A stretch of 64,000 nt of DNA from Proteromonas lacertae (taxonomy: Eukaryota): NCBI GenBank assembly GCA_002245135.1, contig NGBS01000609.1:1-64000 (forward strand), given 5' to 3'. Positions within the stretch are counted from its first letter, which is position 1, and each line of letters starts with the position of its first letter. Below are positions 22,601 through 63,189 of this stretch, piece after piece. The notes beneath the pieces were generated by a model. It saw only the letters and a program-made list of their open reading frames with translations. It had not been told where the DNA came from and searched no databases. A program made the position numbers and the translations under genes.

Positions 22601-24032
22601 CATATTAGAACTACTGGTTAGTTTTATATCTAATGAATAACTACTTGCTGGGATAAGAATTGTTAACGATTCTAACTTATAATTAACATTAATTGTTTGA
22701 AAAGTTATAGCTTTTTTACTTTTCAATTTTTCTCTTTTTCTTCTTTGATAATTATTCACAAAATTGTATATTATCTCAACATTCCTATGATATTGGTAAT
22801 AAAATATTTCTGGATATGGCTTTGGAGTGAATATAATATTATTTATCCTTGCATCAACACTTAGAGTATTTTGAAGTGACTTGATAATTAACATTTTGAA
22901 GAATAAACTAAAATTATCTTTCTCACTACCAATGGTCAATATTTTGTCTTGATTATTTGCTAATAGACTGATATAACCTAATTGTAGTTGAGTGTAATAA
23001 GCAATATTGTTATTGTTATATCTACCACTAATACTATTACAATATACAATAAATAAACAATTATTCTGATATATTAATGAATTACTTGGAACTAAAGATT
23101 GAATAACAAAGTCTTTATTGAATAATGATAAATTGAGTGAAGATATTGTTAATTGATTTTCACTATCAATATGTAGATTTTTAATTGCTTTATCATATAA
23201 TATTTTCATATTTGCTTCATAGATTAATGAATAAGAATATAGTACAATTGGTAAATATGTTCCATTTTGAGTATTCTGTAATAATTCTGGAATAGATATA
23301 ACTATAGAAGATGAAGTAACTTCTAATTGCAATTGATTGTATGATTTCTTATATATTTTCATTTCTTTATGATCTTCACGTAAGTGTAAATAGATTTGTG
23401 ATAATAAAGTGTTGGTTAAACCATAGATGGGAGATGGAAAAACGAAATAATTGTATAAGAAAATATAATCATCAAATAATATTGATAGAGTTAATCCTCC
23501 AATACTATTAATATATATATATATATATATTATATACTTTACTTTAACACTATGAGCTGTACTGTCATTATTAGGATTGTCCTGATGTATGAATATAAAT
23601 GGAGTTTTGATCTTTTCATTATTATTATTATTATTTTGACCTGTTAGTATCATTTGATTACTTGAATTTTGTAATGAAATATCAAATAATCTTCCCCAAG
23701 TCTCTTGTGTTGATTGTTTATGATTGGCATAATATGAAATGTGATGTAAAGTTAATTGAAATGGATTATCACTTACTATAATATAATAATAATAATATAT
23801 ACGATTATCTTTATATAATTTAACATTTACACTTGGACAATATATATAAATTGATCTTTGAATGTCATTCTCTAAACATATTTCCCAATAACTTTTAGTA
23901 TTTAATGATGATTCATAGGATTCGTATAATTCTTTTTTCATTTCTTCAGACCAATGCCATTCTTCTTTTTCTTCGTTATTTTGTTGAGATGAACTTCCAA
24001 TAAACCAAGACCAAAGTGATACATTATTCTAA

Positions 24033-24076
<44 letters not shown>

Positions 24077-25652
24077 TTGAGGTCTATGTGATTGTTCAAT
24101 TTCAATTTCTTTTAATGCAATTTTTCCTATACACTAAAATCTCTTTTGATTCAAAATCATTTTCCAAATCTATCATTTGCAATTCTTCTAGTTTTGTCAA
24201 TGGATTTAACCATTCTACATTCTGTTTTCGTTTGTATAATGAAATATAATGATTTCTCTTTTCTTTATGTTCAATATAATTAATATTCTTAATCTTGGAT
24301 TTACAAGTCCTTATTTCTCTTATAACACTTTTTACAGCAAATTTCCACCATAAATGAGGTTACAAAACAAAACATTTAAATTAAAAAAAGCTTAGATAAA
24401 ATATAAAAAAGATATATTCTCTATAATACTAACATTTGGATGAAATAACACATACTTTTCTTTATGAATCAAATTACTTACATATAAAATACAATTCTGT
24501 ATTGAATTATAGACTGGTTGGCATATATATATTTCAATAGGAGATATATGATAAATCATTGTAATTGGCTGTAATATTCTATCTCTTATTATTATATACA
24601 ACTCAATTATTTCTATCGCTCTTTTTCTATCATATTCTTTATCTTTTTCATCAAATATTTTCATAAATTTTTGTTTGATTTGACTTGATGTCAGTGTTAT
24701 TACATTCTCAGGAATTGAAATGAGTGTTTAGTATATCGAATACAATTGTTTCTGTCATATTTGGCTGAATTATTCCTAATTCATATTGAATTGATGATAA
24801 TATGGTTTTGATAGTATGTTTTCGCAATTCTCTTTCATTATTATTCACCTTTATTAAACCATCGGCATGAATTGGACTAATTATTGGATATTGAATAGTC
24901 TTGGAAGGATTTGAATAAGACCTATTTATATAGAGAATAAATTAATTCAATTTATACACTTCAATATCAGAGACTTGAATTGACTTTATAAATTCATTGG
25001 GATTAGTTGATGGCTCATTATCAAGGGATAAAATTACTCAAAATACCACTGACAACATATGGATTTGAAGGATTTGAACTAAGTATGTATAATAACACAT
25101 TATTATATACTAATTATCTTCAAAATTAATAACAAAACTATGAACTGATATAGATAGGTTGTGTAACAAGTTAGTAAGAAAGGAACTCCAAAATGAACTC
25201 ATTTCTACTTCTTTTGAGGATTTGTAATACTGTTTCTCGTAACTTTCCATCGCTTCTAACTTGCTTCGTTTTAATTTTTGGTCTATATCTTCTTCACTAA
25301 CAAAATTATATGAAAAATGATCTTCCACAGACAATGTCAGTTCAATTTTGTCAATTTCTATACTAATACTCTGACTGCTAAAAATTCCCCAACTTATCTA
25401 TTTATATAACTCACTCTATATACTAGAACTTTCAGATTCTTTATTATTCCATATTTCACTTTAAAGGGAACATTCAGATCATCAAATAACGATTTTTTGA
25501 TTGTCTATTTAACATATACATGCAAAGTATACTAAACTAGGTAAATTAAGCTCTCCTGACAATATAGAAAATCTTAACTCTTCCTGTGTGATATTCTCAC
25601 ACAGAAACGATAGGAGAGATGATAGTTTAACACTTATATACTCTTCAAACAT
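16622..25652 (-). CDS. VPS13: VPS13-family lipid transfer protein (divergent, multi-exon, several apparent frameshifts)
   Basis: Chorein-N start MFEEYISVKLSSLL...LRFSILSGELNL; YYNTNQNIYEPFVD; C-terminal GGSLSLIGNPVSLIESIGEGVQDF. Confidence 0.85.
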
Positions 25653-26077
25653 TACAAGAATATTTTTTCATAGCCCCAATTTATTTTTGCATAACCCTAA
25701 TTTTAATTTCTATTTTTTAAGAATAAAAGAATTAAGGATAATAGAATATACAACCATTAATCAAAAGATTAAAAAATAATAAAATAATAATAATCATTAA
25801 AAGTGGATTAATAATGATATTCTAACCAAAATCCTTTAAACGAATAAAATGAGAAAGTCACAACATAAAATAAATAAGCAACAGAATGTTCCAAGCACTA
25901 ACAGCAATATTAATAAGCAAAGTAAATCAAAAGTTAAAACACATGATAATCACCTTTGATATTAGAAATTTTACTGAAAACTAATATTACATTGATTTAT
26001 GGTTTACTATTGATTAATGGTTTAATTTGCTAAACCCAAACTCTTTAAATTTCTCTTTTACCAATTAAAATAAGTAC

Positions 26078-26335
26078 TACACAATTCCAAAGAATAATGA
26101 TAAGATATTATATGTATTATTCTATGAATGGCCAAAACACAGTGATAGTAAATTGACATTAACCATTCCCAAAGCAACAGATAATACTAAGATTAGTTTA
26201 TTGGGAGATAAAAAAGGATATAAATTTACAATTGAAAATAGTGAAAGCGGTATGATAATTCATTTCCCAATATTTGAATTTGATGATATTCCTGATACCT
26301 TTGCTTATGTGTTGAAATTATAAAATGTGAATTAA
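26078..26335 (+). pseudogene. 3' fragment of the alpha-L-fucosidase gene (inverted duplicate)
   Basis: Near-identical to reverse complement of 45566-45823; GAA to TAA change in LKLENVN gives a premature stop. Confidence 0.9.
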
Positions 26336-26355
26336 TTTTCTAATAATAATGAGTA

Positions 26356-29300
26356 TTTCTTTCTATTTTTTATGTTTTATATCAAAAGCTTGATAAGGTT
26401 TGTGTTTATTGAAACAGCTATTTTTTTTGAAAAGCTTTACTCACATTCATTTTGATATTTGAAGAGACAAATTATCTATAGTTATGCAGTCAGAATCTAC
26501 CTTAGATCAGAGTGTGATAAACGAAATAAAACTAACTGAAGTTGATGTTATAAATGGCAAAGCTTTCTCTTATTGTAAGGATCCTTTTATTTTAGTCCGA
26601 GATTGCTTCCTTCGGATTTACTGTGAGATGAAGAGTGTTATAAGCAACAGTAGAGAATCTAAATATCAAAAATGTTTTTTAGTGTATGGCAATGAAGGAA
26701 TGGGTAAAACAATGTTAAGCTGTTTTCTTGCTCACTGTTTCAGCAAAGATAAATATTTCGAGGGATATAATATTGTTTTTTACTGTTATACACGAGAAAG
26801 AAGTAAAAAATACTGTTATTATTATCGAGAAGCTTATGGTGTTGGATATGAAGAAATAAAAGATCTACCCTATACAAAGAGAAAAACAATAGTGATTAGT
26901 GATAATTATCCAATTAAAGAAGATGATTACAGTAATGCTGAGATAGTGATTATGGTATCTTCACCAAGTGCAGATAAATACAAAGTTATGAGTAATAAAA
27001 GAGCTCCAGTACAATTCTATTTACTACCTCTCACATCAGAAGAAATCAACTTCTGTAAAAGAATAGAATATAGGTTGTCTGAAATAGAATATATATATGA
27101 AAATGAATTTGATCCAGAAAGAGATGGTTTACCATCATATATACCAGCATCATACAATGAAATGTATTATATATATGACACTGATAGAATCGATGTAATT
27201 CCAGAAAGAATAAAGTTTAAATCAGATGAAATAGAAAGAAAAATTTTAACAACATACTTCAATGAACCAAAAAGATTTAAATATTTATATCATGCATTTA
27301 AGGATCAAAGAAATGGAATGATATTTGAAAGAATGTGCCATATTATTATAAAAGATAGGTTGCTTGATAATCAGAATATTCTATATATAGGAGGTAATAT
27401 GTGTTATCATGATAATATGAAAGATTTTGTTGATAAATATCTTCACTCAGATGAAAAGATATACGGAAATAGTGATATTTCTAATACCATTATATGTTGA
27501 TTTTAGTGAAAATCAAGAATTTCCAGCAATTGATGGCTGTATAATTAATATATTCAATATTACATCTGTTCAAATGACAATTAAAGATGATCATCCCACA
27601 GAAGATACAATAATTGTATTTCTGAATGTATATTAATATATTATTATACTTGATTAGATGATATACAGTTACTATAAAGATGTGATGATAGGCTACATAT
27701 TAAATACTCCTACTAATCCATTTCCAGAAGGTATTTCACAAGCATCTTCACTTTATGATCTTGGTTATATACCAAGTAGTTTAAAGAAATATATAATATT
27801 CAAAATGGATCAACGTAAAAGAATTCTATGTGAAAGTTATGTATATTCTATTATTTCTTATATTATTTCTAGTTCTTAATCAATGAAATTAACTGCAGAA
27901 GATATATCGACTCTGATTTGATGAATATGTATAGTGCTGATAGACAGGCAGAATTCAAAGATGTTATGGATAGTGATAAGACAAAATTTGAAGAATTAGG
28001 TGATTGAATTATCAGCCTAAATGTATAATGAATATATTGAAATGCTATTCAAAGAAAATGAAATTTAAGTATATAGATAAACTTAAAGTTTTAATAAAAG
28101 AACAATTAGAAGCAATCAAACAACAATTAAAAGAAGAATATGATAGATATACTACACAATTGTTAAGTATTTCAGAACCAATTGAAATATTTAAAATGAA
28201 AGTCAGATTAGCCATATTTAACAATATCATAAATATAATTGATAGACAATTAGAAGAATCAGTAAATGATGAAGTATTTAGCACCCAAATGAATGATTTA
28301 AAGAATGCAAATAAATGATTATAAAGCAAAAATAGTAGAACAAATAGATGTAGTAGATGAGTCATTCGAAAGTCGATGGAGCGAATTACTAAACAAAGCC
28401 AGACGAATTGAATGAAAGAGTAAAGGAATTACATAACGAAATTGAAATGATAAAAGAGCAACTACAAGAATTGCTTGACAGATTGAATTATTTCCTTAAC
28501 CAGTTGAAAACAAATGAACCAGTTTTAGAATTAATTGATTTAGTTTCATCATTACAAAAGAATTTATCTGATATATCAAACAGAATAACCACATTATATG
28601 GTGGAATAACCGAATCACAAAATGATCCAGAAAAGTTAAATAAAATATGTGATAGTATTCAAGTATTGAAGAGTCACCTTTATATGATACATAAGCTGTT
28701 CCAATCATATTTACAGTTTAACTTGGACAATGATCTTGAAACATGTTTATCATATTTGAGACTTTTCCTTAAATATTTTAAAGCAGATATGGACATAGAA
28801 GATAATGATGATGATAAATCATCTATACCACCTTCATCAACTACTGAAGTTAATGGAGAATCAATAAGTGATAATGACAAGGAAATATCTACTGAAGAAT
28901 TAACCAATTTACATAATAAACTTCTTTCATTACAATATCAACTCCAATTGTTAGGTATATGCGATCTTGAAGTAGGAAATGAATTAGTGAAGAATAAAAT
29001 GAATTCTGAAATAGGAGAATATAGTGAAGATTACAAAAAGTTGTTGCATGATTTAGAAGATTATTTAATCGATGAATATTACATTGATTTAGATGATGAA
29101 GAGAGAGAAGATATGAAAAATGAAATTATTACTGTATATTATGTTATTATTATTATTATAGTCAATTGACAATAATAGAAGCTATGATCGTACTGAATTA
29201 AACAGATGTAATCCAATATTTAGAATTATATTTGTTACATATGATCATGATGAAGTTACAACAAAACTTGTAATAGGTGAAGAAGATTTTGGATATTATG

Positions 29301-32300
29301 GCAAAGAATTTAAAAATGAAATGATAAAAGAGATGAATAAGACATATATTTGGAATCTTTCAAAAACAGATGAAGAGAATATAATAGAAAACACAACAAG
29401 GTTAGTAAGACCAAATAAAAATATTCTAAATGAAGACCAAAAAAAAATAATCAGATCTGTAAAATCAAAAAGACTTAGATTTTCTACTTTAAATTTGACT
29501 ACAAAAGAATTATTAAATGTTTATAATCAAGAAACAACTCCTGAAAGATTTACTGCAAATACAACATTTAAATTCAAGCCAAAAGAATATTCCAATTTAC
29601 TTATAAAAGAACCTTCGAAAAAGCCAATTAATCCTGAAAAAGATATTAATGAGTTGGTTAAAGAATTTAACAACAACATTATTATGAATCAAGCTAATAA
29701 AACTGATAGTTTAAAAGTAATTATAGATGAATATAATGATTTTGTAAATGAATTAAATACATCAAATGGTGAATTGAAGTTAAATGAAGATAATAAAAAG
29801 ATAATAAATGGTATTGAAAATTTATGTAGGAGAATAGATGAACTTGTAGTACTGAATGAAACGATAGATGAAGTAATGCATTTGAAAAATTATATTGGAT
29901 TAACTGTTCCTACCAGAAACTATGTGAATAAATTATTATCAGAATTACCTATTGATGAGACTAAGAAGTGGATAGATGATAATTTATCTAATTTAGTCTT
30001 TCCTATTACTAAACAAGCTGAAGATAATTTACTTCATCGCTTATCTATTGTAAATGAAGAGAAAATTAATAAGTTTATACTGACATTACCTTACATTGTT
30101 ATTAAAGAAGGAATAGGTAAATTACTATGTGAATTACTATATGCTGTAAGTAAAAATTACATAGAAAAATTTTCATTTGAATTGCCTGTTAATGCTACTC
30201 AAAATGTAGTTGTTAAGTTATTAGCTGAATTACGTATTACAATTGATGAAGATTCTATAGATCAGTTTATATCTAAATATCCTGTTCCTAAAGAAGATGA
30301 TATTTATCAATTTTTATTAGCATTACCTGTTGATGGTACTAAAAAGCATATTGATAAGTTATTATCTCAATTACCTATTCCTATTAATGAAGATAATAAA
30401 GAAAAGCTAATATCAATATTATGTGTTGGTAAAGAAGAAGATATTCAGAATTTCATACCTGATTTAATTAAAGATGCTACTAAAGAGTATATTGACAAGT
30501 TAAAACCTGCCTATAATTTAATATCAATAATGAAAGGAAATTTAAAAGATTTTTGTTCTACCTGTACAAGTATATTTATATTAATATAATATTGTAATAA
30601 TAGAAACAAATGAATTATGTCGAATATTTGAAAAACCAGTGATTATAAACTATGATAATACAATAAGCATTGGATGTGATATATTCCAATATCCTGAAAG
30701 GAGAGTGTATATCCGAGATGTTTATAAAGATATATGGAATGAATTGAAATATTATATATTCTTTTTGAAAATACGAGAAGTTAAACGTGAAAGTTTTGAT
30801 GATATTAATGCTATTGTTGAAATAATAAATGAATGTATAAGAGAAGATAATGAAGAGAATAATAAAAGAAATATAAATATTATTAGAGAATATATTATAA
30901 AAGGAAAATGTTTTGAAGAGAAAATAGCTGTTCTAGATGATATGAACAATAAAATATTTAGAGGTAAAATCAGAAAGGAATATAATGGAAAAGAATACAA
31001 AGCAGTTAAATGCTTTAAAATTTTATTAAGAGGAAATCCAGGATGTGGTAAAACCTCCTTTATAATATTCATGCTGAAGAAGATCATTGAGTTAAATGAA
31101 AGAATTAGTGATGATAGATTAAAAATTGATGCTAAAGTATTTAAAAATGGAGGTGATCATGATTTCAATAAATATCGATTAGTAAAAGAAAATGTTCGTG
31201 AAGGTATTAATAATCCAAAACGCTCTGATATAGCTATAACAGATTCATATAACTTAGATACAAGAGATGCAAAAGCTTCAATTATATTATACATTACTGC
31301 TCCAGATTATAAGAATTATAAAAATTTTATAGTAAATAATCGTAATAAATTCTATTATTATATGGATGTATTTAGTAATGATGAAATAAAGGAATGGGAA
31401 GAAAAATGTTTAACAACTAAACTGACATATTCAATATATAAAAATGGATTCAATAGTAAATATGGAAATGTTCCAAGACATATCTATTATGCAGCAATAT
31501 ATGATGTATGTTATGGTAGAGATTATTGGGATGAGTTATACTCAATAGGTATTAAGAGAATAATTGGAGGTATTGGATATATGGAATTTCTAATGAAATA
31601 TCTATTTCCAAGTGAGTCTGCAGAAGATAAAATATCTAATTATAAATCAGAAAGATTTGATATTACATTATGTCATTTGATAGTGAAATATTCTATACCA
31701 TATAAAGATGAAGTGAATAAAATCAAATATTATGATAGAATCAATGAATATGAAATGGAGTTTATATCTGATGAAGTATTTGATTATATTTATGATAACA
31801 TAAAACACAAAGCTGAAAAAGCAGATATTAATGATATTCAAGGGATTTTTAGGAGTATTTATAATAAAAAAGATCATCAATTATTTCAATTACTATTTGA
31901 AGAACTAGTATTTTACAACTGCTTATATAATGGAGAAAAATTAAAATATAAAAATAATACAATAATAGAAACAATTGATAAGAATGAATTTGACACTTTT
32001 AAAGAATTATTCAATGTTGATATATATTCTACTAAAATGAAAGGTGTGTATTTAGTTCATTTAGCAACTGTTGAGAATAGAGAAATGATTTATTTGATGA
32101 ATAACTGTTTTATTCATATTATAAATGATCCAAGCGAAGCCAAAAGAGAATGTAATGAAATAATTGATGAATGTATTATTCAACTGTCAATGAAAATGAA
32201 ATGGTTAAATTTTCATTATATATTTGTTTCTTCAAAAGGCAAAACTTCTAAACAATTAAAAGTAGAGAAAAAGTTTATATCTCATTTAAAGCCAATAATA

Positions 32301-32578
32301 GATCTAACAACTAATGAACCTGGTATAGTGAGTCTTAAACCATCAAATAATGGAACATATTATTGTGTAAATGGAGAGAGGATAAAAGTTATTATATTAT
32401 ATTATCGATCAGAATTTGAGAAAGAAGTGTATGGAAAAGATTTTGGTTTAAAATTACTTTATTAAACCACTTTTAATGATTATTATATATTATAATGTTT
32501 ATATCTTTTGATTAAGGGTTATATACTTTATTATCAGTATTTCTTTTAATGTTATACATCACAAAAAGAAATTAAAAT
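26356..32578 (+). mobile_element. Putative NTPase-REase mobile unit A
   Basis: Flanked by direct repeat ATAATAATGAGTA at 26343-26355 and 32579-32591; 5' end conserved in copies B and C. Confidence 0.6.
26484..32465 (+). CDS. Crinkler/RHS-like tandem P-loop NTPase + REase-like protein, copy A (~1,950 aa spliced; several frameshifts)
   Basis: Walker A GNEGMGKT and GNPGCGKT; VIMVSSP; FPAID...SVQMTI; introns 27628-27657, 27841-27872, 29134-29161, 30570-30603 join the ORF-track pieces. Confidence 0.75.
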
Positions 32579-32745
32579 ATAATAATGAGTAATAAAGGGT
32601 TTTTGATTCAAAAAAATAGCCGTTTATGTGTTCTATTTCACCCTATAGTTTTTTCACCCTTAGAAACATAATTAGACAATAAAAAATACATCAATCGATT
32701 CGTAATATTATGCTGGGCTCAAATATGCCCTTAAAAAATCGATAC

Positions 32746-33313
32746 TGTTGATCCGCCGTTCAGCTAAATACGCCGTTGAGCGTTAAGAAGACTTTTTTCA
32801 ATTCTAATATCATAAACGTAACCTCTGCCCTTCAATATTACTAATCAACACTTTGTTTTCCAAAATAGTTACGTTGGCCTAATATCGTATAGTAGTGTTT
32901 AGGTTCCTGTACTGGAAACAATTTTTATTTTTATATTATTTTAAAAGCTTATAACAATAGCAGACATCGGGATAAAGGTTTTAAATAGAAAAGGAATACC
33001 TACTTATTGCATTTACCTACTTAAAATTTATTTTGAAAAAACAGGCTTGAATGAAGCTTGAATAGATTTTTTATTTTTTCGTTTTTAAGCGTCCTAACAT
33101 CTAAATATGTGTGATTTAATTGCTTAAACTAATGTATTTTTAACTCCAGTAGTGATTGAAGCAAAAAATTAAAAATATATATCGCAGATGAAGCTTATAT
33201 GACAAAGTAAGATTATATTTGCATATAACTCGCCATTAAACCACACACTATCATTTTAGAATTGAAAAAGTCTTCTTAACGCTCAACTGCGCATTTAGCT
33301 CAACGGAGCAACA
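32746..33313 (+). mobile_element. Non-autonomous TIR element (MITE), copy 1, TGTTG...CAACA
   Basis: ~55-60-bp imperfect TIRs; 5-bp TSD GATAC at 32741-32745 and 33314-33318. Confidence 0.9.
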
Positions 33314-33324
33314 GATACATATAT

Positions 33325-33368
33325 CATGATCACAATATGGTGCGATATGACACCATATGGTGATCATG
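33325..33368. repeat. Hairpin, 18-bp stem with one mismatch
   Basis: CATGATCACAATATGGTG ... CACCATATGGTGATCATG. Confidence 0.8.
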
Positions 33369-33463
33369 TCATCTCAAATAAAACGAATCTATTTTTCTAT
33401 TATTGAAATTTCTTATAAGACGTATATTACATATCAAAATAATGCTAATTAATTATGTAAATT

Positions 33464-33766
33464 ATGAACAACACCCCCACACAAAAAAAACAATCAAATC
33501 ATTTGAATCAATGGTATTTTGAGTTAACACACAAAATGATTAACATGATTATGAGTCAACGTTTGATATTAGTGTTTGTAGGTCCTTGTGACTTAGGAAA
33601 TAGAGATTATCCGAAAGTTACATACACACCAACAATGAAAAAAGTAATCATCAGAATGCCACAAAGATGTTTTAATGGTAAGATGCCAATATTCTTCAAA
33701 TGTACTCATATGGATACAGAGATGATAGAATATATTGAAACTCATACAATATTTCACCACACATAA
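33464..33766 (+). CDS. Intronless hypothetical protein in the virus-like centre
   Basis: 100-aa ATG-initiated ORF converging on the protease ORF. Confidence 0.5.
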   Translation: MNNTPTQKKQSNHLNQWYFELTHKMINMIMSQRLILVFVGPCDLGNRDYPKVTYTPTMKKVIIRMPQRCFNGKMPIFFKCTHMDTEMIEYIETHTIFHHT

Positions 33767-33791
33767 AAAAAATAATTAAGAAATAATTATA

Positions 33792-36700
33792 TTATATTAA
33801 ACCAAATTGTTTTTTCATTAACCTAATTTTTGCTTCACCCACTATTGTATTATAGTCAGTAGCCTTTTTGAAACTACACTGATCTCTTAAAATATTTTTC
33901 AAAAAATTAATAGCAAAAAAACCGCAGTTAGCAGTATTTGAATTTTGATTATGTACTCCATTGATTTTAAGTTCATACTTTTCATTATGATACTTCTTTA
34001 ATTTTTTCAAATTTTTTTTAAATTCTTCCAAGCGTTGAGGATCTTCACCAAATGAATCATAGTACAGGAATTGCTTCTTGATATTGTCAACTACTAAGGC
34101 CACCCAATGACCTATAGAATCAGGGCTAGCTTGTGTGGTGAGTGTATTGATTATGATTCCCCATTGATTCTTCTTTTTGGGTATAGGAAGTACAAGCTCG
34201 TCCCAGCAGAACACTCCCATGAACTTTCCGTGGAAATTATTGAACTCATTTTTCACAATTAACTCTATATCAAAGTTCGATAAGGCATCTGAAGTGATAC
34301 TGTTATACAAAACTTTCCTACGTGAAATTAATTTCTTTACTTTTTTATTATTTCCATTACCTATTCCAAAGTAACTCATAGCTTCACTGAGTTGTTTTGC
34401 TTGATCTAAATTACTCACTGCTCTACCAAAATTAGTGAGTGAACTTGGAATTGTTTGTTGTGAACGTCTCACGTAGTTATCCATTTTGATTGCATTCTTG
34501 TGTTGATATGGTGTTGGTTTTAACCAGTTTAATAAACCACCTGCATCTAGCAAACCAAAACAAGCAGTCAATGCACTGAATACTGTTCCTATACCTGCAA
34601 CAGTTTGTAATGTACCTGTTGGATCAGCTGCAACAACAGTTTTTGCCATTGATGGCATAGCTTTTGATAATTCACTAATACCTTTAACTGCTGCTGCAGC
34701 AGTTGTTGCATCACCTCCATTTGCAGCTGCAGCTACAGTTGCTGCTGTTTTTAATGTATCACCTACATTTTTTGCATCTATATTTCATATATTAGAAAAT
34801 TTGTAGAAGAATGGAACTAATAGAAATAAGTATCGAACATATGGATGAGTATTGAACATAAATGAAACACCAAAGTTATACAACAAGTCTACAGGTAACC
34901 ATGATTTTTGAATTGCTTCAGGTAACATTGACTTAACTTTTTCTGAATTACCATAATACAAGTCAGTGATAGCAGGTAATCTACCACCTGATAGCATACG
35001 AATTATTTCATAGTAGTCGAAAATGAAGTACCACATTACATACAAGAACCCTGATGTTGGTAGCTTGGATTTTTTCCATAACCAATAAGCCAAACATGTC
35101 ATTACTATTGCACGAACATATTTCATTGCATGATCTACTTCAAACATTTGAGGAGTAACTCCACCTACCAAATATGACTTCATTGTATAGTATATTTGTG
35201 GAAATATCCTAAATACATTCTCTACACACAGGAACAAATTACCAGCAAAACCCATAAAATCAGATTCACGTAATGAATCGAGTGCTTTTTGAAATTGTGA
35301 ATTTTCAAATTGTGCCCATGAACTACATGCAGTTTTCACTAAACCAATAGCTATTTCATATTTTTGTTTATTATCTGCATTCACCCACTCTTGAGGAAGT
35401 GAGTGACCTAACTTCTCTCTGTTATAATCAAAGTTAATGAAATCTCTACTATTTTGTGATGCTATTTCATTCAGTTCTCTATATTTATCTTCATTAATCC
35501 ATATATGCGGTTCTTTATCTATATCTATAGCACTATTCACTAGTTCTTGATTTTTTGGATCTAATGCCCATCTATAAAATTTTGATCTTTCTAATATCTC
35601 TTGATCATCCATATATCTTTGTGCCTTTTGATTATTCAATGCAATATATTCTTTTACTTTTTCAGCTCGATTCGGATCAAAATTATATGGATCTGAATAT
35701 TGATTGATCTTACTTACTCCATCAACTAATTCATTTTGCAAATACTCCTGCTGTAGTAATAGTTTGTTATAATATTCTATTGCATCTTTATCATTACCTG
35801 TTAATTTATCCCAAGTTGAGGTCAACCAATCTTGTCTATAATTTTTATACGCTGCTAATTGAGGATTCTTTTCTATTATCTCTTGTAATGATTTATAATT
35901 TTGTAATTTAGGAAATTTTTGTAACAAAGGATCTGTAACTCTATTCATTCCATTATCATATGCCTGAACATCTGCTTCTGTAACATATTCAGGCCAATTC
36001 AAAAGATAGCTTCTTGGATTAGATGTATCTAATTCTGCTAATGGGAATGTTCCTCTTAAATGTCCTTTTTTCTGTTCACGATCTAGCATATCATAAAAAT
36101 TAATATGATAATTGTTAGGCAACATTGAAGCATAATTATTAGTTAATGCATATTGAACTTCTTTTCGAGCTTGTCTATTCAAACCTGGACTAAATAATTT
36201 ATCATAATTCCAATTAAAATCATATCCTACCGTTTCTTTTGGTATATATGGTTGAATATATTCTGGTATTTGACTTGGCTGTAATTGTGATGTTCCATTA
36301 TAAGCAGCACTAGCAGTATCATACATTTGTTGTCTTGGATTAGTAATAATGACATGCTTATTAGGACCAACACTTTGACCCACTCTTAATGGTATAATAC
36401 CACTATTACCACCTAATTCCTTAGTAGCCAAGAGATGCCTCCGTGGGATACTCTCTAATTTTAGTTTATTTCTTCTGTGATGTTTCTTATGCTTGAAATG
36501 AACATGTTATCTTCTACCTGAACCTGTCTTTGGATATCCATCTAAAGACATGCCAAATAAACCATAATTTACTTTAGGCCATAAAACAAATTGTTTTCCC
36601 ATACCATTAATTAAATTACACACATCTGATCGTGCTTCTGGAGCATTACGACCACATTGATATTTGAAATAATGTAAATAATCTACTAATTGATCTATTG

Positions 36701-37291
36701 TTCCTCCATAGTTTGAAAACTTTGATATAATATCTAATGGCAATCCTACATTTTTACATACATTTTCTAAATCTTGTTTTGTATTATTCATAACCATTTG
36801 CTTAACTGATTCATAATCATATTGATTAATCAAAAATGGTTGTAATTTTTCCATAATAGCATCAACATTATATCTTTGTTGTTGTTGTTGTTGTAATGGT
36901 TGTGTGATATTTTGGAATGTTGGCTGGGCTGTTGCCTCCGTGGAGGCAGCAACACCTGCCATCATTCCGGCGTAATTTGCAGCATTTGAACTTTGATTAT
37001 TATAACCTGCACCAGTTGCAGGTATTGAAGTTGTAACATTAGAACTGGCCCCAGTTGTAGTACTATTAGTTGTATTATTATAACTGGTGCCAGTTGTAAC
37101 ATTCGATACTTGAATATTTGAAGTGGCCGGCGCACTCGTCGAATTTGTTGTTGTAGGAGTAGCACCAAATATACCTCTGAACCAAAATTGAAACATATAA
37201 TATAGTAGCCATTTAAAATATTTACTCAAAAGTATTTCAACTAGTTAGCGTTTAAAATACTTTGAACGACTTGGAATTTAGGCTCGAGCAT
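33792..37291 (-). pseudogene. Virus-like polyprotein with membrane segments and C-terminal adenain/Ulp1-clan (Polinton/virophage-type) cysteine protease, interrupted by two in-frame stops
   Basis: ORFs 36507-37229, 34785-36431 and 33792-34658 are in one frame, separated only by TAA (36507-36509) and TGA (34785-34787); IIINT...GHWVAL...YYDSFG...NQ...CGFF motifs; upstream ATG at 37291 is one base out of frame. Confidence 0.8.
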
Positions 37292-37599
37292 GACTTAATT
37301 TATTTTGTTAAATAGAAAGAGATATGGAATTTTATATTTTCAAAAATATATATTATGATGTATTTATTTATGATATATTAGAAAAATCAAATAAAAAACA
37401 AAAGAAAGTTAAAAAAAATGAATCGAACGTTCGAGTTAAATCGAATGATATAAATTGTATTTTTATATATTTTTAATTAATTGATTATTTGAAAACAAAA
37501 TTAATGGAGTAGAGATAATTTTACTTCAATATATTAGTTGTAATTATAGCAGTCAACAATTTAGCAATATTGTTTTTAATTTAAGAATATTGTCAAGTA

Positions 37600-38713
37600 A
37601 ACAAAATTATTTCAGCAGATACCAGTATACATATATTATTATTATTTTGGTGATTTCCAACAATACTGCAATAGCGTTATAAAATGCAGTATTATACATG
37701 ATCCAACTGATTTCAGAAATCAAATTAGATATTTCAAAGATATACTGTTATACCTATTTGATTACAATCCAAATTATAAGTAAAATATTGTATAATATAT
37801 TTTATAATATTAATAAATAGTATGATAGAATGTTAGATTGGATATATATCGATCTAAAAGTGATTGTATATAACCCGAGTGGTTACACAGATCAGAAAGG
37901 AACATATGATGAAATTGAAAAGCAATAAAAAGAAAAAGAAGAAAAAAAGAATCAACAACAAGTAGAGAAGAACAAAACCAAATCACCAGTAAAAAGAAGA
38001 AGAAAGTATGATGATGATCATGATGATGATGAAGATAAAGATGTTGTGCGCTGTTGAGCTAAATGCGCAGTTGAGCGTTAAGAAGACTTTTTCAATTCTA
38101 AAATGATAGTGTGTGGTTTGATGGCGAGTTATATGCAAATATAATCTTACTTTGTCATATAATCTACATCTGCAATATATATTATTTGAACTTTATCCCA
38201 ACATAATGAAAACAATTATAATTTTATTTTTAATTTTTTTACTTCGATCACTACTAGAGTTAAAAAAACATTAGTTTAAGCAATTAAATCACACATATTT
38301 AGATGTTAAGACACTTAAAAACGAAAAAATAAAAATCTATTCAAGCCTCATTCAAGCCTGTTTTTTCAAAATAAATTTTAAGCAGGTAAATGCAATAAGT
38401 AGGTATTCCTTTTCTATTTAAAACCTTTATCCCGATGTCTACTATTGTTATAAGCTTTTAAAATAATATAAAAATAAAAATTGTTTCCAGTACAGGAACC
38501 TAAACACTACTATACGATATTAGGCCAACGTAATTATTTTGGAAAACAAAGTGTTGATTAGTAATATTGAAGGGCCAGAGGTTTCGTTTATGATATTAGA
38601 ATTGAAAAAAGTCTTCTTAACGCTCAACGGCGTATTTAGCTGAACGGCGCACAACAAAAGATAAAGATGGCAGTGATGATGATGCAAGTCCAGTAGTAGA
38701 TCTGATAGAATAG
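37600..38713 (+). pseudogene. Spliced gene remnant interrupted by MITE copy 2
   Basis: Intron 37780-37820; internal TAA; frame ...KYDDDHDDDEDK|DKDGSDDDASPVVDLIE* restored by removing the MITE and one TSD; start approximate. Confidence 0.6.
38042..38656 (-). mobile_element. Non-autonomous TIR element (MITE), copy 2, inverted relative to copy 1
   Basis: TGTTGTGCGC...GCGCACAACA termini; 5-bp TSD AAAGA at 38037-38041 and 38657-38661; 47 bp longer than copy 1. Confidence 0.9.
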
Positions 38714-38821
38714 GACTGCTAATTAAGTCCTTAAAATTTATTTTTATAAAAATTCTCATATAAAATTATTTATATGCGTAGCTAATTATACGCAAAATTT
38801 TTATTGTCTAATAAAAATAAC

Positions 38822-38856
38822 TAAAGGGTTATAGCACACTGTGCTATAACCCTTTA
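38822..38856. repeat. Perfect 35-nt palindrome (17-bp arms)
   Basis: TAAAGGGTTATAGCACA-C-TGTGCTATAACCCTTTA. Confidence 0.9.
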
Positions 38857-38870
38857 TTACTCATTATTAT

Positions 38871-39007
38871 TTGTTATACAAAGATTTACCAGGTGATGAC
38901 ATTCTTGACAATGGAGCGCTTGGACTTCGATTCTTTAAAACTATTTTTGGAGAAGTAGAAGAGATAGAACTTAATTGATTTACAGAATACACTTTAGATT
39001 GGTTCAT
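38871..39007 (-). pseudogene. Duplicated 5' fragment of the giant coiled-coil gene
   Basis: Near-identical to 59222-59358 (MNQSKVYSVNQLSS...GKSLYN), then runs into TAA at the junction. Confidence 0.9.
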
Positions 39008-39441
39008 TCTATTATTTTATAGAAAATTTATTTTGTTTATACCTCAAGATGTTTATTTACTTTCTCTAATTACAAATATAAAATGATTAAAATTTAAAAA
39101 TGGCTTGATTGATTCAAATCTTTCAAAAATGATTTTGTTGATTTTTTCATAGAATATATAGTAAATTCAGCAATACCATCGATTTTCGAAGTATTTCATT
39201 TGAATTATATGAATAGACGAAATAACTAATAGAAAAGTATAAGTGAAGTCTCTTTAGTTGTAGAAGATGAATGTGATATTGAAATGATAAAGATCATATG
39301 TAAATGTGATAAAAAGAAATAAGAGTTTTAAATGCGTAGAGAATCCCTCATTTATGTTAGATTGTTATAACTCGAATATGAGTTGATTTAGAAAATATAA
39401 TCTTTATCAAGTAATGATATTTGAAAGATAACTTATTTTTG

Positions 39442-42400
39442 TTAGATTGTTGTTTTTTTTTCAGATGGTGGCTGTTTAACATCATTTGGTGAAGATGGTA
39501 GTTGTATATTTTTTAGAATAAAATCCTTTCCATACACTTCTTGCTCGAATTCTGATAAATAATACTTTAAATCAATTTTATCTTCTGATATTTCTATATT
39601 CTGTTTAACTGGTTTATAAGTTATTGGATCTAGTATTGGCTTTAAATGAGATATAAACTTTTTCTCTACTTTTAATTGTTTAGAAGTTTTGCCTTTTGAT
39701 GAAACAAATATATAATGAAAATCTAACCATTTCATTTTCATTGACAGTTGAATAATACATTCATCAATTATTTCATTACATTCTCTTTTGGCTTCGCTTG
39801 GATCATTTATAATATGAATAAAACAGTTATTCATCAAATAAATCATTTCTCTATTCTCAACAGTTGCTAAATGAACTAAATACACACCTTTCATTTTAGT
39901 AGAATATATATCAACATTGAATAATTCTTTAAAAGTGTCAAATTCATTCTTATCAATTGTTTCTATTATTGTATTATTTTTATATTTTAATTTTTCTCCA
40001 TTATATAAGCAGTTGTAAAATACTAGTTCTTCAAATAGTAATTGAAATAATTGATGATCTTTTTTATTATAAATACTCCTAAAAATCCCTTGAATATCAT
40101 TAATATCTGCTTTTTCAGCTTTGTGTTTTATGTTATCATAAATATAATCAAATACTTCATCAGATATAAACTCCATTTCATATTCATTGATTCTATCATA
40201 ATATTTGATTTTATTCACTTCATCTTTATATGGTATAGAATATTTCACTATCAAATGACATAATGTAATATCAAATCTTTCTGATTTATAATTAGATATT
40301 TTATCTTCTGCAGACTCACTTGGAAATAGATATTTCATTAGAAATTCCATATATCCAATACCTCCAATTATTCTCTTAATACCTATTGAGTATAACTCAT
40401 CCCAATAATCTCTGCCATAACTTACATCATATATTGCTGCATAATAGATATGTCTTGGAACATTTCCATATTTACTATTGAATCCATTTTTATATATTGA
40501 ATATGTCAGTTTAGTTGTTAAACATTTTTCTTCCCATTCCTTTATTTCATCATTACTAAATACATCCATATAATAATAGAATTTATTACGATTATTTACT
40601 ATAAAATTTTTATAATTCTTATAATCTGGTGAAGTAATGTATAATAATAGTAAAGAATTTGCTTGTCTTTCAGAAAGGTTATGTGAATCTGATATAGCTA
40701 TATCAGAGATATTTGGATTGTTAATACCTCTATGGATTTTTTCTCCAATTAATCGATATTTATTGAAATCATTATTACCTCCATTTTTAAATACATATAC
40801 TTCAATTTTCAATTTATTATCATTAATTTTTTTATTTAATTCAATGATCATCTTCAACAAGAATATTATAAAAGAGGTTTTACCACATCCTGGATTTCCT
40901 CTTAACAGAATTTTAAAAAACGTAACTTCATCGAAGTTTTTTCCATTATCTTCCTTTCTGATTTTACCTCTAAATATTTTATTGTTCATATCATCTAGAA
41001 CAGCTATTTTCTCTTCAAAACATTTTCCTTTTATAATATATTCTCTAATAATATTTATATTTCTTTTATTATTCTCTTCATTATCTTCTCTTATACATTC
41101 ATTTATTATTTCAACAATAGCATTAATATCATCAAAACTTTCACGTTTAACTTCTCGTATTTTCAAAAAGAATATATAATATTTCAATTCATTCCATATA
41201 TCTTTATAAACATCTCGGATATACACTCTCCTTTCAGGATATTGGAATATATCACATCCAATGCTTATTGTATTATCATAGTTTATAATCACTGGTTTTT
41301 CAAATATTCGACATAATTCATTTGTTTCTATTATTACAATATTATATTAATATAAATATACTTGTACAGGTAGAACAAAAATCTTTTAAATTTCCTTTCA
41401 TTATTGATATTGAATTATAGGCATGTTTTAACTTGTCAATATACTCTTTAGCAGCATCTTTAATTAAATCAGGTATGAAATTCTGAATATCTTCTTCTTT
41501 ACCAACACATAATATCGATATTAGCTTTTCTTTATTATCTTCATTAATTGGGATAGGTAATTGAGATAATAACTTATCAATATCCTCTTTAGGAGTATTA
41601 CTAGGATTAGGTATTTTTGACAAAAATTGATGAATATCATCTTTATTAGGAACAGGTAATGCTGATATTAACTGATCTATAGAATTTTCACTTATAGTGA
41701 TTTTCAATTCAGCTAATATCTTTTTAATATCTTCTTTTGTAACATCAACAGGCAATTCAGATAAAAACTGTTCTATGTAATTTTTACTTACAGCATATAG
41801 TAATTCACATAGTAATTTACCTATTACTTCTTTATTAACAATGTAAGGTAATGTTAATGTATATTGATTAACAACAGAAGACATGTAATTAAGTAACCTA
41901 TTTTTGTTATCTTCATTTATAGGAAAGACTAAATTGGATAAATTATCATCTATCCACTTCTTAATTTTATCAATAGGTAATTCTGATAATAATTTATCCA
42001 CATAGTTTCTTGTAGGAACAGTTAATCCAATATAATTTTTCAAATGTTTTACTTCTTCTTTATCTTTATTCAGTACTACAATTTCATCTATTCTCCTACA
42101 TAAATTTTCAATACCATTTATTATCTTTTATTATCTTCATTTAACTCCAATTCACCATTTGATGTATTTAATTCATTTACAAAATCATTATATTCATCTA
42201 TAATTACTTTTAAACTATCAGTTTTATTAGCTTGATTCATAATAATAGCATTGTTAAATTCTTTAACCAACTCATTAATATCTTTTTCAGGATTAATTGG
42301 CTTTTTCGAAGGTTCTTTTATAAGTAAATTGGAATATTCTTTTGGCTTGAATTTAAATGTTGTATTTGCAGTAAATCTTTCAGGAGTTGTTTCTTGATTA

Positions 42401-45400
42401 TAAACATTTAATAATTCTTTTGTAGTCAAATTTAAAGTAGAAAATCTAAGTCTTTTTGATTTTATAGATTTGATTATATTCTTTTGGTTTTTATCTAAAG
42501 AACATTTTCCTGATTTTGTTATTTCTGTTCTTGGCCTTTTTGCAGGATTTACAAAATCCCAAATATATGTCTTATTCATCTCTTTTATCATTTCATTTTT
42601 AAATTCTTTGCCATAATATCCAAAATCTTCTTCACCTATTACAAGTTTTGTTGTAACTTCATCATGATCATATGTAACAAATATAATTCTAAATATTGGA
42701 TTACATCTGTTTAATTCAGTACGATCATAGCTTCTATTATTGTCAATTGACTATAATAATAATAATAACATAATATACAGTAATAATTTCATTTTTCATA
42801 TCTTCTCTCTCTTCATGATCTAAATCAATGTAATATTCATCGATTAAATAATCATCTAAATCATGCAACAACTTTTTGTAATCTTCACTATATTCTCCTA
42901 TTTCAGAATTCATTTTATTCTTCACTAATTCATTTCCTACTTCAAGATCGCATATACCTAACAATTGGAGTTGATATTGTAATGAAAGAAGTTTATTATG
43001 TAAATTGGTTAATTCTTCAGTAGATATTTCCTTGTCATTATCACTTATTGATTCTCCATTAACTTCAGTAGTGGATGAAGGTGGTATAGATGATTTATCA
43101 TCATCATTATCTTCTATGTCCATATCTGCTTTAAAATATTTAAGGAAAAGTCTCAAATATGATAAACATGTTTCAAGATCATTGTCCAAGTTAAACTGTA
43201 AATATGATTGGAACAGCTTATGTATCATATAAAGGTGACTCTTCAATACTTGAATACTATCACATATTTTATTTAACTTTTCTGGATCATTTTGTGATTC
43301 GGTTATTCCACCATATAATGTGGTTATTCTGTTTGATATATCAGATAAATTCTTTTGTAATGATGAAACTAAATCAATTAATTCTAAAACTGGTTCATTT
43401 GTTTTCAACTGGTTAAGGAAATAATTCAATCTGTCAAGCAATTCTTGTAGTTGCTCTTTTATCATTTCAATTTCGTTATGTAATTCCTTTACTCTTTCAT
43501 TCAATTCGTCTGGTTTGTTTAGTAATTCGCTCCATCGACTTTCGAATGACTCATCTACTACATCTATTTGTTCTACTGTTTTTGCTTTATAATCATTTAT
43601 TTCATTCTTTAAATCATTCATTTGGGTGCTAAATACTTCATCATTTACTGATTCTTCTAATTGTCTATCAATTATATTTATGATATTGTTAAATATGGCT
43701 AATCTGACTTTCATTTTAAATATTTCAATTGGTTCTAAAATACTTAACAATTGTGTAGTATATCTATCATATTCTTCTTTTAATTGTTGTTTGATTGCTT
43801 CTAATTGTTCTTTTATTAAAACTTTAAGTTTATCTATATTTAAATTTTCATTATTTTGAATAGATTTCAATATATTCTTAACTTTAGGCTGTAATTCAAT
43901 CACCAATTCTTCAAATTTTGTCTTATCACTATCCATAACATCTTTGAATTCTGCCTGTCTATCAGCACTATACATATTCATCAAATCAGAGTCGATATAT
44001 CTTCTGCAGTTAATTTCATTGATTAAGAACTAGAAATAATATAAGAAATAATAGAATATACATAACTTTCACATAGAATTCTTTTACGTTGATCCATTTT
44101 GAATATTATATATTTCTTTAAACTACTTGGTATATAACCAAGATCATAAAGTGAAGATGCTTGTGAAATACCTTCTGGAAATGGATTAGTAGGAGTATTT
44201 AATATGTAACCTATCATCTTATCTTTATGGTAACTGTATATCATCTAATCAAGTATAATAATATATTAATATACATTCAGAAATACAATTATTGTATCTT
44301 CTGTGGGATGATCATCTTTAATTGTCATTTGAACAGATGTAATATTGAATATATTAATTATACAGCTATCAATTGCTGGAAATTCTTGATTTTCACTAAA
44401 ATCAACATATATGGTATTAGAAATATCACTATTTCCGTATATCTTTTCATCTGAGTGAAGATATTTATCAACAAAATCTTTCATATTATCATGATAACAC
44501 ATATTACCACCTATATATAGAATATTCTGATTATCAAGCAACCTATCTTTTATAATAATATGGCACATTCTTTCAAATATCATTCCATTTCTTTGATCCT
44601 TAAATGCATGATATAAATATTTAAATCTTTTTGGTTCATTGAAGTATGTTGTTAAAATTTTTCTTTCTATTTCATCTGATTTAAACTTTATTCTTTCTGG
44701 AATTACATCGATTCTATCAGTGTCATATATATAATACATTTCATTGTATGATGCTGGTATATATGATGGTAAACCATCTCTTTCTGGATCAAATTCATTT
44801 TCATATATATATTCTATTTCAGACAATTCACACTCTATACTGTTACAAAAGTTGATTTCTTCTGATGTGAGAGGTAGTAAATAGAATTGTACTGGAGCTC
44901 TTTTATTACTCATAACTTTGTATTTATCTGCACTTGGTGAAGATACCATAATCACTATCTCAGCATTACTGTAATCATCTTCTTTAATTGGATAATTATC
45001 ACTAATCACTATTGTTTTTCTTTTTGTATAAGGTAGATCTTTTATTTCTTCATATCCAACACCATAAGCTTCTCGATAATAATAACAGTATTTTTTACTT
45101 CTTTCTCGTGTATAACAGTAAAGAACAATATTATATCCCTCGAAATATTTATCTTTGCTGAAACAGTGAGCAAGAAAACAGCTTAACATTGTTTTACCCA
45201 TTCCTTCATTGCCATACACTAAAAAACATTTTTGATATCTAAATTCTCTACTGTTGCTTATAACACTCTTCATCTCACAGTAAATCTGAAGGAAGCAATC
45301 TCGGACTAAAATAAAAGGTTTTCTACAATAAGAGAAAGCTTTGCCATTTATAACATCAACTTCAGTTAGTTTTATTTCGTTTATCACACTCTGATCTAAG

Positions 45401-45417
45401 GTAGATTCTGACTGCAT
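39442..45417 (-). CDS. Crinkler/RHS-like tandem NTPase + REase-like protein, copy B (nearly intact)
   Basis: Same motifs and four introns as copy A; only break seen is a one-base poly-A difference near 42125. Confidence 0.8.
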
Positions 45418-45565
45418 AACTATAGATAATTTGTCTCTTCAAATATCAAAATGAATGTGAGTAAAGCTTTTCAAAAAAAATAGCTGTTTCAATAAACACA
45501 AACCTTATCAAGCTTTTGATATAAAACATAAAAAATAGAAAGAAATACTCATTATTATTAGAAAA

Positions 45566-47466
45566 TTAATTCACATTTTCTAATTTCAACACATAAGCAA
45601 AGGTATCAGGAATATCATCAAATTCAAATATTGGGAAATGAATTATCAAACCACTTTCACTATTTTCAAATGTAAATTTATATCCTTTTTTATCTCCCAA
45701 TAAACTAATCTTAGTATTATCTGTTGCTTTGGGAATGGTTAATGTCAATTTACTATCACTGTGTTTTGGCCATTCATAGAATAATACATATAATATCTTA
45801 TCATTATTCTTTGGAACTGTGTAAGCTATATTTTTATTTTTAGCATTATCAAATGGAACTTTATATGGTTTTGTTTTATAAATAGCTTCACCATTTATTT
45901 TCATAAATCTTCCAATATCTCTTAATCTTTCTTCATATTCTGGAGTTATTATTCCATCAGCTGTTGGACCAACATTTATTAACATATTACCACCTGTTGC
46001 TATCACTGTTATTAAGTCTCTTATTAACTCTTTTGAGGAATAAAAATCACTTAATCTTTTAGTTTTATCATAACACCAACAATCTTTTGTCATTGTAAAA
46101 CAACATTCATATTTCTCATCCAGTGTTGCATCAGGAATAAATCGATCACTTCCTGTTAAATAATCACCACTACCATCATATCCCCATCTTGAATTAGTTA
46201 CTACTGTATTCTTAACTGGACTTGATGAGTATAACCAACTTAAGAATTTTTCATTTTGATAATATAATTCTCGTTTATCCATTTCATCAGAACCATCTGA
46301 CCATATTAAATCAGGTTTATAATCATTAGTTATTTGAATCAAAGAGGGATGCAATACTTGTTCTGTATATTTCGTTGTTTTATCTTTCTTATCTTTTTCC
46401 CATAAGGCATTTCCCCATTCTTTTATACTGTGATATAAACCCATTTTCATTCCTGTTGCTTTTACTGCTTTGGTTAATTCACCTGTTAAATCTCTATGTG
46501 ATCCTCTTTCTACTGAATTATATAAGTAATGTTGTGGAGATGGATAATTACAGAATCCATCATGATGCTTTGTTGTTAATACTACATATTGAGCACCAAC
46601 ATCTTTAAACAATTCAGCCCATTCACTTGCATTGAATAATTGAGCTTGAAACATATCAGCAAATTGATCATAAGTGAATTTCTTACCATTACATGGATAT
46701 TTATCTTCAGCTATTCCACTACATCCATACATCTTGTTATGATATTGAACATAAGCTGCTTGACCATTATGAAGATATTTATAATACCATTCGCTTTTGA
46801 AAGCTGGAACACTGAATAAAGTCCAATGAATGAATATACCAAATTTGGCATCATCAAACCATTTTGGAGATGGTCTTGCAGCTAATGCAGCTGGCTTTTC
46901 TGGATATGGAGGTAAAGGACATGCTTTATCTTCATAGGTTGAATTACAAGCATAAGAAGTTGAAACTGTGAAATGATAGTTTATTTTTCTTCTTATTAAT
47001 ACATTGGTGATTTTTGCATCTGAGATTGATTTATCACAAACAAAATCCATTGAAAACATTTTCGTTACGATTGCACCCATCTTTTCACCATCTATATACG
47101 CTACTCTTGCTCCTTTGTCAGGATTTTTAATCTCGCTTGGTAGAATTATCTCGGTTTTGTTAATGCCTAATGACACACATACATCATTCTCTATTTTATA
47201 ACCTGTTGATGCTACAACGCTGTTACACTTTTCAGGAACATCAACAACATTACCTCCAACTAAGAATATAATTCAACAAATATACGTCGCAAAAAATAGT
47301 TAATCCCATCCTTCTCATATTGCATCGATTTCAACTCTGTTAGTCTACATAAATCATATCTGTAACAACCCTTCTCATCATTTGATGGAATTGACAAAAT
47401 ACATGAGTTACAAGTAACAAAAGCAAAAGCTACCACAAAAACAAACAAATAATTGAGTTTATTCAT
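45566..47466 (-). CDS. Secreted alpha-L-fucosidase (GH29) with N-terminal MRH-like domain
   Basis: WFDDAKFGIFIHW, LTTKHHDGF, PDLIWSDG, GGNMLINVGP; signal peptide; one short intron near 47260-47285. Confidence 0.92.
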
Positions 47467-53846: not shown

Positions 53847-53880
<34 letters not shown>

Positions 53881-63010: not shown

Positions 63011-63189
63011 AACTGAAGAAGGAAAGTTTGTAATAAGGAAATAAATGAGATTTGAAAATAATAACCGTTTCAATAAACACAAACTATATCAAGCTTTTGA
63101 ATATAAAACATTAAAATAGAAAGAAATGCTACTTCATTCGAGAAATAAATAGAAATATATAAAACATAAACAAAATAAAAAGTAATCAA

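Follow-up and report, generated by a model that had tools for sequence, protein, structure and literature searches.

Among described systems, the closest to the locus studied here are the Crinkler/RHS (CR) proteins, which combine nucleoside triphosphatase (NTPase), helix-turn-helix and restriction endonuclease (REase) modules. The available portions of published accounts describe a family that is shuffled by recombination, whose modules have been tied to transposons, and in which helitrons have been linked to the expansion of CRN genes (PMC5289972, PMC11342252, PMC11064341). A second parallel is the insertion of restriction-modification (RM) genes with long target duplications; the known cases, in the part of the account available, are prokaryotic, with duplications of >30 bp proven by empty alleles (PMC2853133). 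We analyzed a 64-kb window (the whole stretch of DNA examined, i.e., positions 1-64,000 of contig NGBS01000609.1 from Proteromonas lacertae), from which all of our positional evidence is drawn. It contains two CR-type genes, in units A and B, each lying between copies of a 13-14-bp repeat. As in the RM cases, a putative nuclease gene sits within a direct duplication, with neither a transposase nor terminal inverted repeats (TIRs), but here the duplication is only 13-14 bp, the empty site is reconstructed, and there is no methylase. One unit, B, carries a true duplication signature, a 13-14-bp direct repeat exactly at ends that were defined by homology. The features on the side of unit B are as follows.

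45566-47272, minus strand: intact α-L-fucosidase open reading frame (ORF) flanking unit B (Pfam PF01120, 6e-104).
45546-45559, minus strand: outer repeat copy of unit B, 7 nt past the fucosidase stop codon.
38871-45545, minus strand: unit B, comprising a 128-bp leader, one CR-type gene and a 571-bp tail.
45417 (ATG) to 39442 (stop), minus strand: the unit B gene, with introns at 44274-44245, 44061-44030, 42778-42751 and 41361-41328.
38871-39007, minus strand: captured start of a host gene (the first 137 bp of ORF H), cut mid-gene at the repeat.
38858-38871, minus strand: inner repeat copy of unit B, which makes up the first 13 bp of the 23-bp terminus at the right end of a neighboring segment, E.
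49288-59367, minus strand: host gene H, very long, acidic, multi-exon and probably coiled-coil.
59222-63127, minus strand: copy C with its downstream flank, an internally deleted paralogue and the likely source of the tail of unit B.

The window has a GC content of 25.9% and is gene-dense, with long open frames in the standard code. The 13-mer ATAATAATGAGTA occurs on the plus strand at 26343 and 32579, and as its reverse complement at 38858 and 45546. These four sites, to which the initial annotation had drawn attention, are the only exact copies in the window (n = 4), where an order-2 Markov model predicts 0.029 in 128 kb. At unit B the match between the two copies lengthens to 14 bp. When the 51-bp 5' boundary region was compared with random tails of 300, 1,000 or 2,000 bp, a 13-bp match arose by chance in 23, 76 and 106 of 3,000 trials, respectively, so that a match anywhere within a tail is a 1-3.5% event.

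The ends of unit B could be placed by homology with copy C. At the 5' end, exact identity begins at 26355/63127, the last base of the outer repeat, which bears out the proposal that homology with copy C starts at this same boundary. At the 3' end, identity to the downstream flank of C stops at 38871 (59222 in C), directly at the inner repeat. Because both ends are thus fixed independently of the repeat, and the repeat abuts each of them, the duplication around B that the initial annotation had likened to a target-site duplication (TSD) is genuine. Unit B is 6.7 kb in total, and its gene of ~1,950 codons has a single 1-bp frame break, near 42129.

The tail of B matches the downstream flank of C in 724 of 731 columns (99%). 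ORF H starts at ATG 39007 in B and at 59358 in C, where H is whole, and the 3' junction of B lies mid-gene, without poly(A). The 3' end of the unit, proposed in the initial annotation to be variable, runs into host flank: the tail is a copy of the flank of C and stops inside a host ORF.

Unit A, on the other side of segment E, had been read as a second insertion at the same site. The features on that side are as follows.

26356-32578, plus strand: unit A, the same gene as B with several frame breaks and a 113-bp tail.
26078-26355, plus strand: orphan copy of the fucosidase 3' end (265 bp, with a premature stop) plus the outer 13-mer, copied with the 5' junction of B.
25700-25837, minus strand: remnant D, the last codons and 3' untranslated region of an A-type copy, 79% like the tail of A.

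Homology between A and B (26078-32453 vs 45823-39511; 94.7% identity by self-BLAST) does not stop at the outer repeat, but continues beyond it for 265 bp, within fucosidase 3' sequence, where 260 of 265 positions are identical; across the outer junction identity is 495/500. The two outer repeats are therefore a single junction that has been duplicated. The inner junction of A, for its part, needs no TSD, because it is part of the 23-bp inverted ends of E. Two independent insertions at one site are thus not supported: the repeats of A are explained by a copied junction and a terminus of E, and C has no duplication. There is one independent case of duplication (unit B), not two, and, within the window, one of three copies has an independent TSD. 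For C, no flanking duplication exceeded chance (the best matched at 10 of 12 positions, which was equaled by 59 of 300 random tails), and a degenerate TSD was rejected, since random tails did as well in 59, 98 and 153 of 300 cases for k = 12, 13 and 14, respectively. Also rejected was a 10-bp AT-only repeat around the entire A block, which fell within chance.

The two units had been said to leave the same empty site on removal. The repeats lie as described, but the site is a reconstruction and none was observed; the matching sites arise from the two ends of E together with the copied fucosidase flank. Similarly, the tails of A and B do differ, as had been noted, but they are not anonymous sequence, that of B being a copy of the C flank and that of A resembling remnant D. 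Homology between the tail of A and D stops at the boundary with the repeat, beyond which D runs into other sequence, which has no significant homology with the ends of E.

Unit A diverges from B in patches. Its frame breaks lie at 27490, in a cluster at 27998-28069, and at 28308 and 28398; it has many 1-bp indels, and its last ~55 codons differ from those of B, as does the tail. In the interior, 377 differing columns fall into 28 clusters between near-identical tracts, so that stretches of 100% identity alternate with patches of 76%-87%. Such clustering resembles the pattern left by gene conversion, or by polishing in repeats. Non-synonymous differences outnumber synonymous ones (10 vs 5 in 342 codons and 40 vs 9 in 571 codons, as raw counts, for 26463-32297 vs 39634-45438). 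A tandem pair of 141-bp units (30168-30445, plus strand) lies in the helical mid-region of the gene, in a patch that is among the most divergent between A and B.

Between the two units lies segment E, whose features are as follows.

32579-38870: segment E, 6,292 bp, with 23-bp perfect inverted ends, virus-like ORFs and two later insertions of miniature inverted-repeat transposable elements (MITEs).
32746-33313: Ginger/TDD-like MITE, copy 1, with TGTTG...CAACA ends and a 5-bp TSD, GATAC.
33792-34784, minus strand: ORF for an adenain/Ulp1-clan cysteine protease, the last of three (Pfam C48, 5.6e-8; C5, 4.7e-5).
38042-38656: Ginger/TDD-like MITE, copy 2, with a 5-bp TSD, AAAGA, interrupting a short plus-strand frame.
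38760-38857, minus strand: hairpin array at the right end of E, with a perfect 16-bp stem starting 1 nt after the 13-mer.

The inner repeats have 23 bp in common rather than 13, and face each other as the inverted ends of E. The earlier statement that there is no TIR consequently holds between the two ends of either unit, as judged by self-BLAST, but not for the locus. Beyond 23 bp the two ends of E are weakly alike (score 46, reached by 15 of 300 shuffles). The right-end array is exceptionally stable (z = -8.5; none of 200 shuffles was as stable), whereas the left end folds no better than chance (100 of 200 shuffles). A strong hairpin (z = -5.0) also occurs at 33325-33368, just inside the first MITE in the left subterminal region. 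There was no Rfam match across 24000-48000. The exact 23-mer had no match in viral and metagenome contigs, and the 16-bp stem had three matches in viral contigs, which we attribute to chance as none had the palindrome found in the window.

On the minus strand of E (33792-37244) are three intronless ORFs in one frame, split by single stops (TAA at 36507 and TGA at 34785), which are perhaps a decayed viral polyprotein or a run of genes. The protease has four unnamed relatives, at 47%-64% identity, and a scan of viral contigs with it yielded no confirmed related locus. The other two ORFs (573 and 245 aa) had no Pfam match and one weak PHROGs match of unknown function, and the 573-aa ORF had no Atlas match; no integrase, recombinase, polymerase, capsid or packaging ATPase was detected in the E ORFs with Pfam or PHROGs. 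An adenain-clan protease, inverted ends, slightly higher GC and intronless ORFs are shared with Polintons, adintoviruses and Polinton-like viruses, as described in the available part of one report (10.64898/2026.10.13.758929). Unlike those, E measures ~5.1 kb without its MITEs, has no match to a protein-primed DNA polymerase (pPolB), integrase, capsid or ATPase, and lacks a 6-bp TSD. Segment E thus resembles a possible Polinton-like remnant in which the protease alone is recognized.

The two MITEs are 89% identical and were inserted into E independently. Each has its own TSD, and we therefore rejected the idea that these 565-610-bp inverted repeats are one large inverted duplication. Both copies display TGTNR ends, TIRs (~50-68 bp) and a TSD within the 4-6-bp range of Ginger2/TDD MITEs, the 5-bp length being that of TDD-4/5 in the part of the source consulted (PMC2836005). 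No transposase occurs in the window, and the superfamily is assigned from the MITE ends only.

Judged from splice signals and frames, the ORFs of each unit appear to be exons of one four-intron gene of ~1,950 codons with the order NTPase-REase-coil-NTPase. The splice sites were placed by GT-AG and phase continuity. Each unit retains all four introns (28-34 nt, GT-AG), which are phase-continuous in B, in agreement with the proposal that the units were copied at the DNA level. Introns of similar size, 30 bp, are recorded in the available part of a Blastocystis study (PMC12129017). Two exons of unit B encode the recognizable domains.

44269-45417, minus strand: exon 1, with a P-loop NTPase, a helical linker and a putative REase.
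39442-41327, minus strand: last exon, with a second, paralogous P-loop NTPase.

In exon 1 (ORF numbering) the Walker A motif occupies residues 76-83, and Walker B is at D147. A full HMMER search found 16 relatives, of which 14 were aligned and two fragments of ~105 aa excluded; a word-based protein search with the same query found none. The Walker A glycine and lysine, and D147, were each conserved in 12 of 12 rows with residues. In the putative REase, E289 was present in 13 of 14 rows, P354 in 14 of 14, D357 in 15 of 15, Q370 in 13 of 14 and T372 in 14 of 14, and these residues sit on a helix-strand pattern in the predicted model. The resulting E...PxxD...QxT motif is one that we take to match those of CR/RHS REases, and by this motif-based assignment the putative nuclease appears intact in B.

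In the predicted model of exon 1 (pLDDT 70), residues 24-238 alone matched P-loop folds of the STAND, AAA+ and helicase types (best Z 9.0), with no single family standing out. Fold searches reached the NTPase only, a profile of the putative REase stretch had no match in the PDB, and a viral structure library gave generic P-loop matches only. In the Atlas, exon 1 had as neighbors a CRN-family cluster (0.96-0.97; RHSP on 13% of its members) and an RHS cluster (0.92), and one of 15 relatives matched TIGR01631 (E = 0.005); no ORF of the window matched RHSP or Crinkler in Pfam. The CR-type NTPase and REase identity first suggested is thus upheld by the Atlas clusters together with the conserved Walker and putative REase residues.

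The last-exon NTPase is paralogous to the first (profile-profile probability 98.5%), and none of six sequences had a PxxD...QxT nuclease motif behind it; a single-sequence structure prediction for this exon was too low in confidence to use (pLDDT 31). For the first exon and the last alike, the best relatives were on the same single Logan contig (4,788 bp), which suggests that the double-NTPase architecture is conserved. A scan of metagenomes with the NTPase-REase alignment gave no confirmed related locus. As in described CR proteins, a P-loop NTPase is followed by a helical region and then, to judge by its motif, by a putative REase. The gene differs in its size, in the second NTPase without the nuclease motif, and in the 13-14-bp duplication that flanks one copy. 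It also has no N-terminal ubiquitin-like or LxLFLAK header: ATG 45417 is ~30 codons before the NTPase, and PF20147 was not matched there. A search of the open literature, with Repbase and subscription journals outside it, found no CR gene with a TSD or insertion footprint.

Insertion of copied sequence can result from template switching during replication or repair, i.e., fork stalling and template switching (FoSTeS), microhomology-mediated break-induced replication (MMBIR) or synthesis-dependent strand annealing (SDSA). We tentatively favor, at slightly less than even odds, a reading in which B was copied in once by repair synthesis of this kind at the hairpin end of E, and A was then converted. 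Starting from the junction sequences and homologies observed, we infer an order of events, a source of the break and a direction of copying. E would first have landed between two 3' gene ends, those of a resident CR gene (the ancestor of A) and of the fucosidase, bringing its 23-bp ends. A fork would then have stalled, or a staggered break formed, at the base of the right-end hairpin array, and repair would have switched to a CR promoter, copied the gene, and continued into the flank now found at locus C. Its return 13-14 nt behind the exit point would have duplicated the terminal bases of E. Finally, A and B, which by then formed a long inverted repeat, would have exchanged sequence, one tract carrying the 5' junction of B and 265 bp of fucosidase to A; such a tract would give A its apparent TSD. 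One insertion and one conversion tract would account for all four repeats. The duplicated bases reach from the first base of E to within 1 nt of the 16-bp stem and, because they coincide with the terminus of E and the hairpin base, the end of E is favored as the source of the break. The CR gene would then be cargo, one of a probable nuclease-type conflict gene family that spreads by recombination.

An intron-bearing chimeric insert derived from nearby loci, a mid-gene end, and a short duplication by a strong hairpin are all as in FoSTeS, MMBIR or SDSA. Here, however, there is only slight microhomology at the junctions (AATGA/AGTA-like at the 5' end in C; 1-2 nt at the 3' end), and the insert starts at a promoter boundary common to a diverged paralogue. 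Further points weigh against templated insertion. Copy C is 73% identical to the 5' 5 kb of B and is internally deleted (its first NTPase is joined in frame to the mid-region, without the REase), so that this part of B needs an unseen donor or a double switch. The empty site is known by reconstruction from the window, there is no 5-6-bp TSD between the inferred original flanks of E, and the status of E as an element rests on its 23 bp, hairpins and protease, the ends being only weakly alike beyond. The apparently intact REase motif in B also means that an active role is possible.

That active role is the substance of one alternative, which we consider unlikely: the CR gene would mobilize itself, its REase cutting with a 13-14-nt stagger, perhaps with the ends of the virus-like element as its target, and the unit being copied from a fixed 5' start to a variable 3' end. 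A and B would be two insertions, the flank of A having been overwritten later. The conserved E...PxxD...QxT motif and the TSD-like pair at B are in its favor, as are the two different tails that both stop at the 13-mer, the common boundary of the A-tail/D homology, and a 5' start shared with the 73%-identical copy C. Precedents are the links of CR modules to transposons (PMC5289972, PMC11342252) and the insertion of bacterial restriction genes with long target duplications (PMC2853133), within the parts of those sources available. However, the independent duplication is single, there is none at C, and D continues into other sequence. The shared start (128 bp upstream of the ATG and, in C, 62 bp from the stop of a neighboring WD40 gene) may be a promoter limit only; B stops inside a host gene and so has no defined 3' end; and striking the exact terminus of E would seem to demand a specificity beyond what the sequence supports. 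It is doubtful that the gene is a transposase-free eukaryotic mobile element, with a fixed 5' end and capture of host genes at its 3' end, whose own NTPase-REase would cut an endogenous Polinton-like virus at its terminus; a new mobile element is possible, but is not demonstrated.

Known classes of element did not fit the units. In 41 proteins compared with Pfam (38 window ORFs and three relatives) there was no reverse transcriptase (RT) or DDE transposase, as the initial annotation had said, and no RepHel protein. There was no inverted match between unit ends as for a cut-and-paste DNA transposon, and the duplication at B is contrary to a Helitron. Of the hallmarks of non-LTR or Penelope elements (an RT in cis, poly(A) and intron loss), the units show none.

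It is also improbable that the ends of E were themselves the active agents. The 13-mer would then be the terminus of E, the outer copy a remnant of an earlier E end left by a local hop, adjacent deletion or inversion, and the apparent TSD of B a by-product of two separate junction events. Transposon ends are known to cause adjacent inversions and duplications; both ends of E carry the 13-mer, in inverted orientation, and three different flanks (fucosidase, tail of A and host-gene fragment) meet the motif at one and the same first base. But this explanation takes more steps than one insertion, E has no integrase, recombinase or polymerase match to drive it, and it gives no reason for the outer remnant to end precisely where the hairpin base and the CR 5' start lie.

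There is a small chance that assembly or polishing in a repeat family produced part of the structure, i.e., a chimeric B or homogenized A/B tracts. The alternation of identical and divergent A/B patches, and the 1-bp indels of A, would fit such an artefact. The different MITE TSDs, the differing ends of E and the unique junctions argue against a simple fold-back, however, and an assembler would not make a 13-14-bp duplication at two homology-defined ends. Reverse transcription in trans of an unspliced read-through CR transcript by a long interspersed element (LINE) or a Penelope-like element, giving a TSD, a 5' end that coincides with the transcription start site and a 3' transduction, is highly improbable: a 13-14-bp TSD and a promoter-proximal 5' end do fit target-primed insertion, but all four introns are kept, the full 6.7-kb length is present, neither 3' junction has poly(A), and no RT was found in the scanned ORFs.

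Elsewhere in the window, an unbroken 644-aa ORF (12239-14173, minus strand) with acyltransferase-3 and SGNH domains most resembles bacterial and phage O-antigen acetylases (PHROG 6705, 1.2e-39), and is a candidate for lateral transfer. Two other unbroken minus-strand ORFs, at 1321-1911 and 15441-16160, have CxxC pairs and no Pfam match, and are possibly of mobile-element or viral origin; the former bears a weak resemblance to a Lar-type phage protein (3e-4). A multi-exon VPS13-like gene (16622-25650, minus strand; weak Pfam VPS13_VAB match, 0.004) has remnant D just upstream, and (TA)n microsatellites at 24037-24075 and 58450-58487 are apparently intronic.

Unit B is an insertion footprint of a CR gene in which the putative nuclease motif appears intact, in a family whose proteins are said to descend from transposons; the footprint and the motif together make testable the question of whether CR nucleases still move themselves. 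If the CR gene was passive cargo, the locus would be a single rearrangement rather than a new class of element, and would show clearly how a conflict-gene family can undergo duplication and shuffling where an endogenous virus-like element ends. If instead the gene mobilized itself, it would represent, in living form, the mobile ancestor that has been proposed for Crinkler/RHS effectors, parasitizing or disarming a virus.

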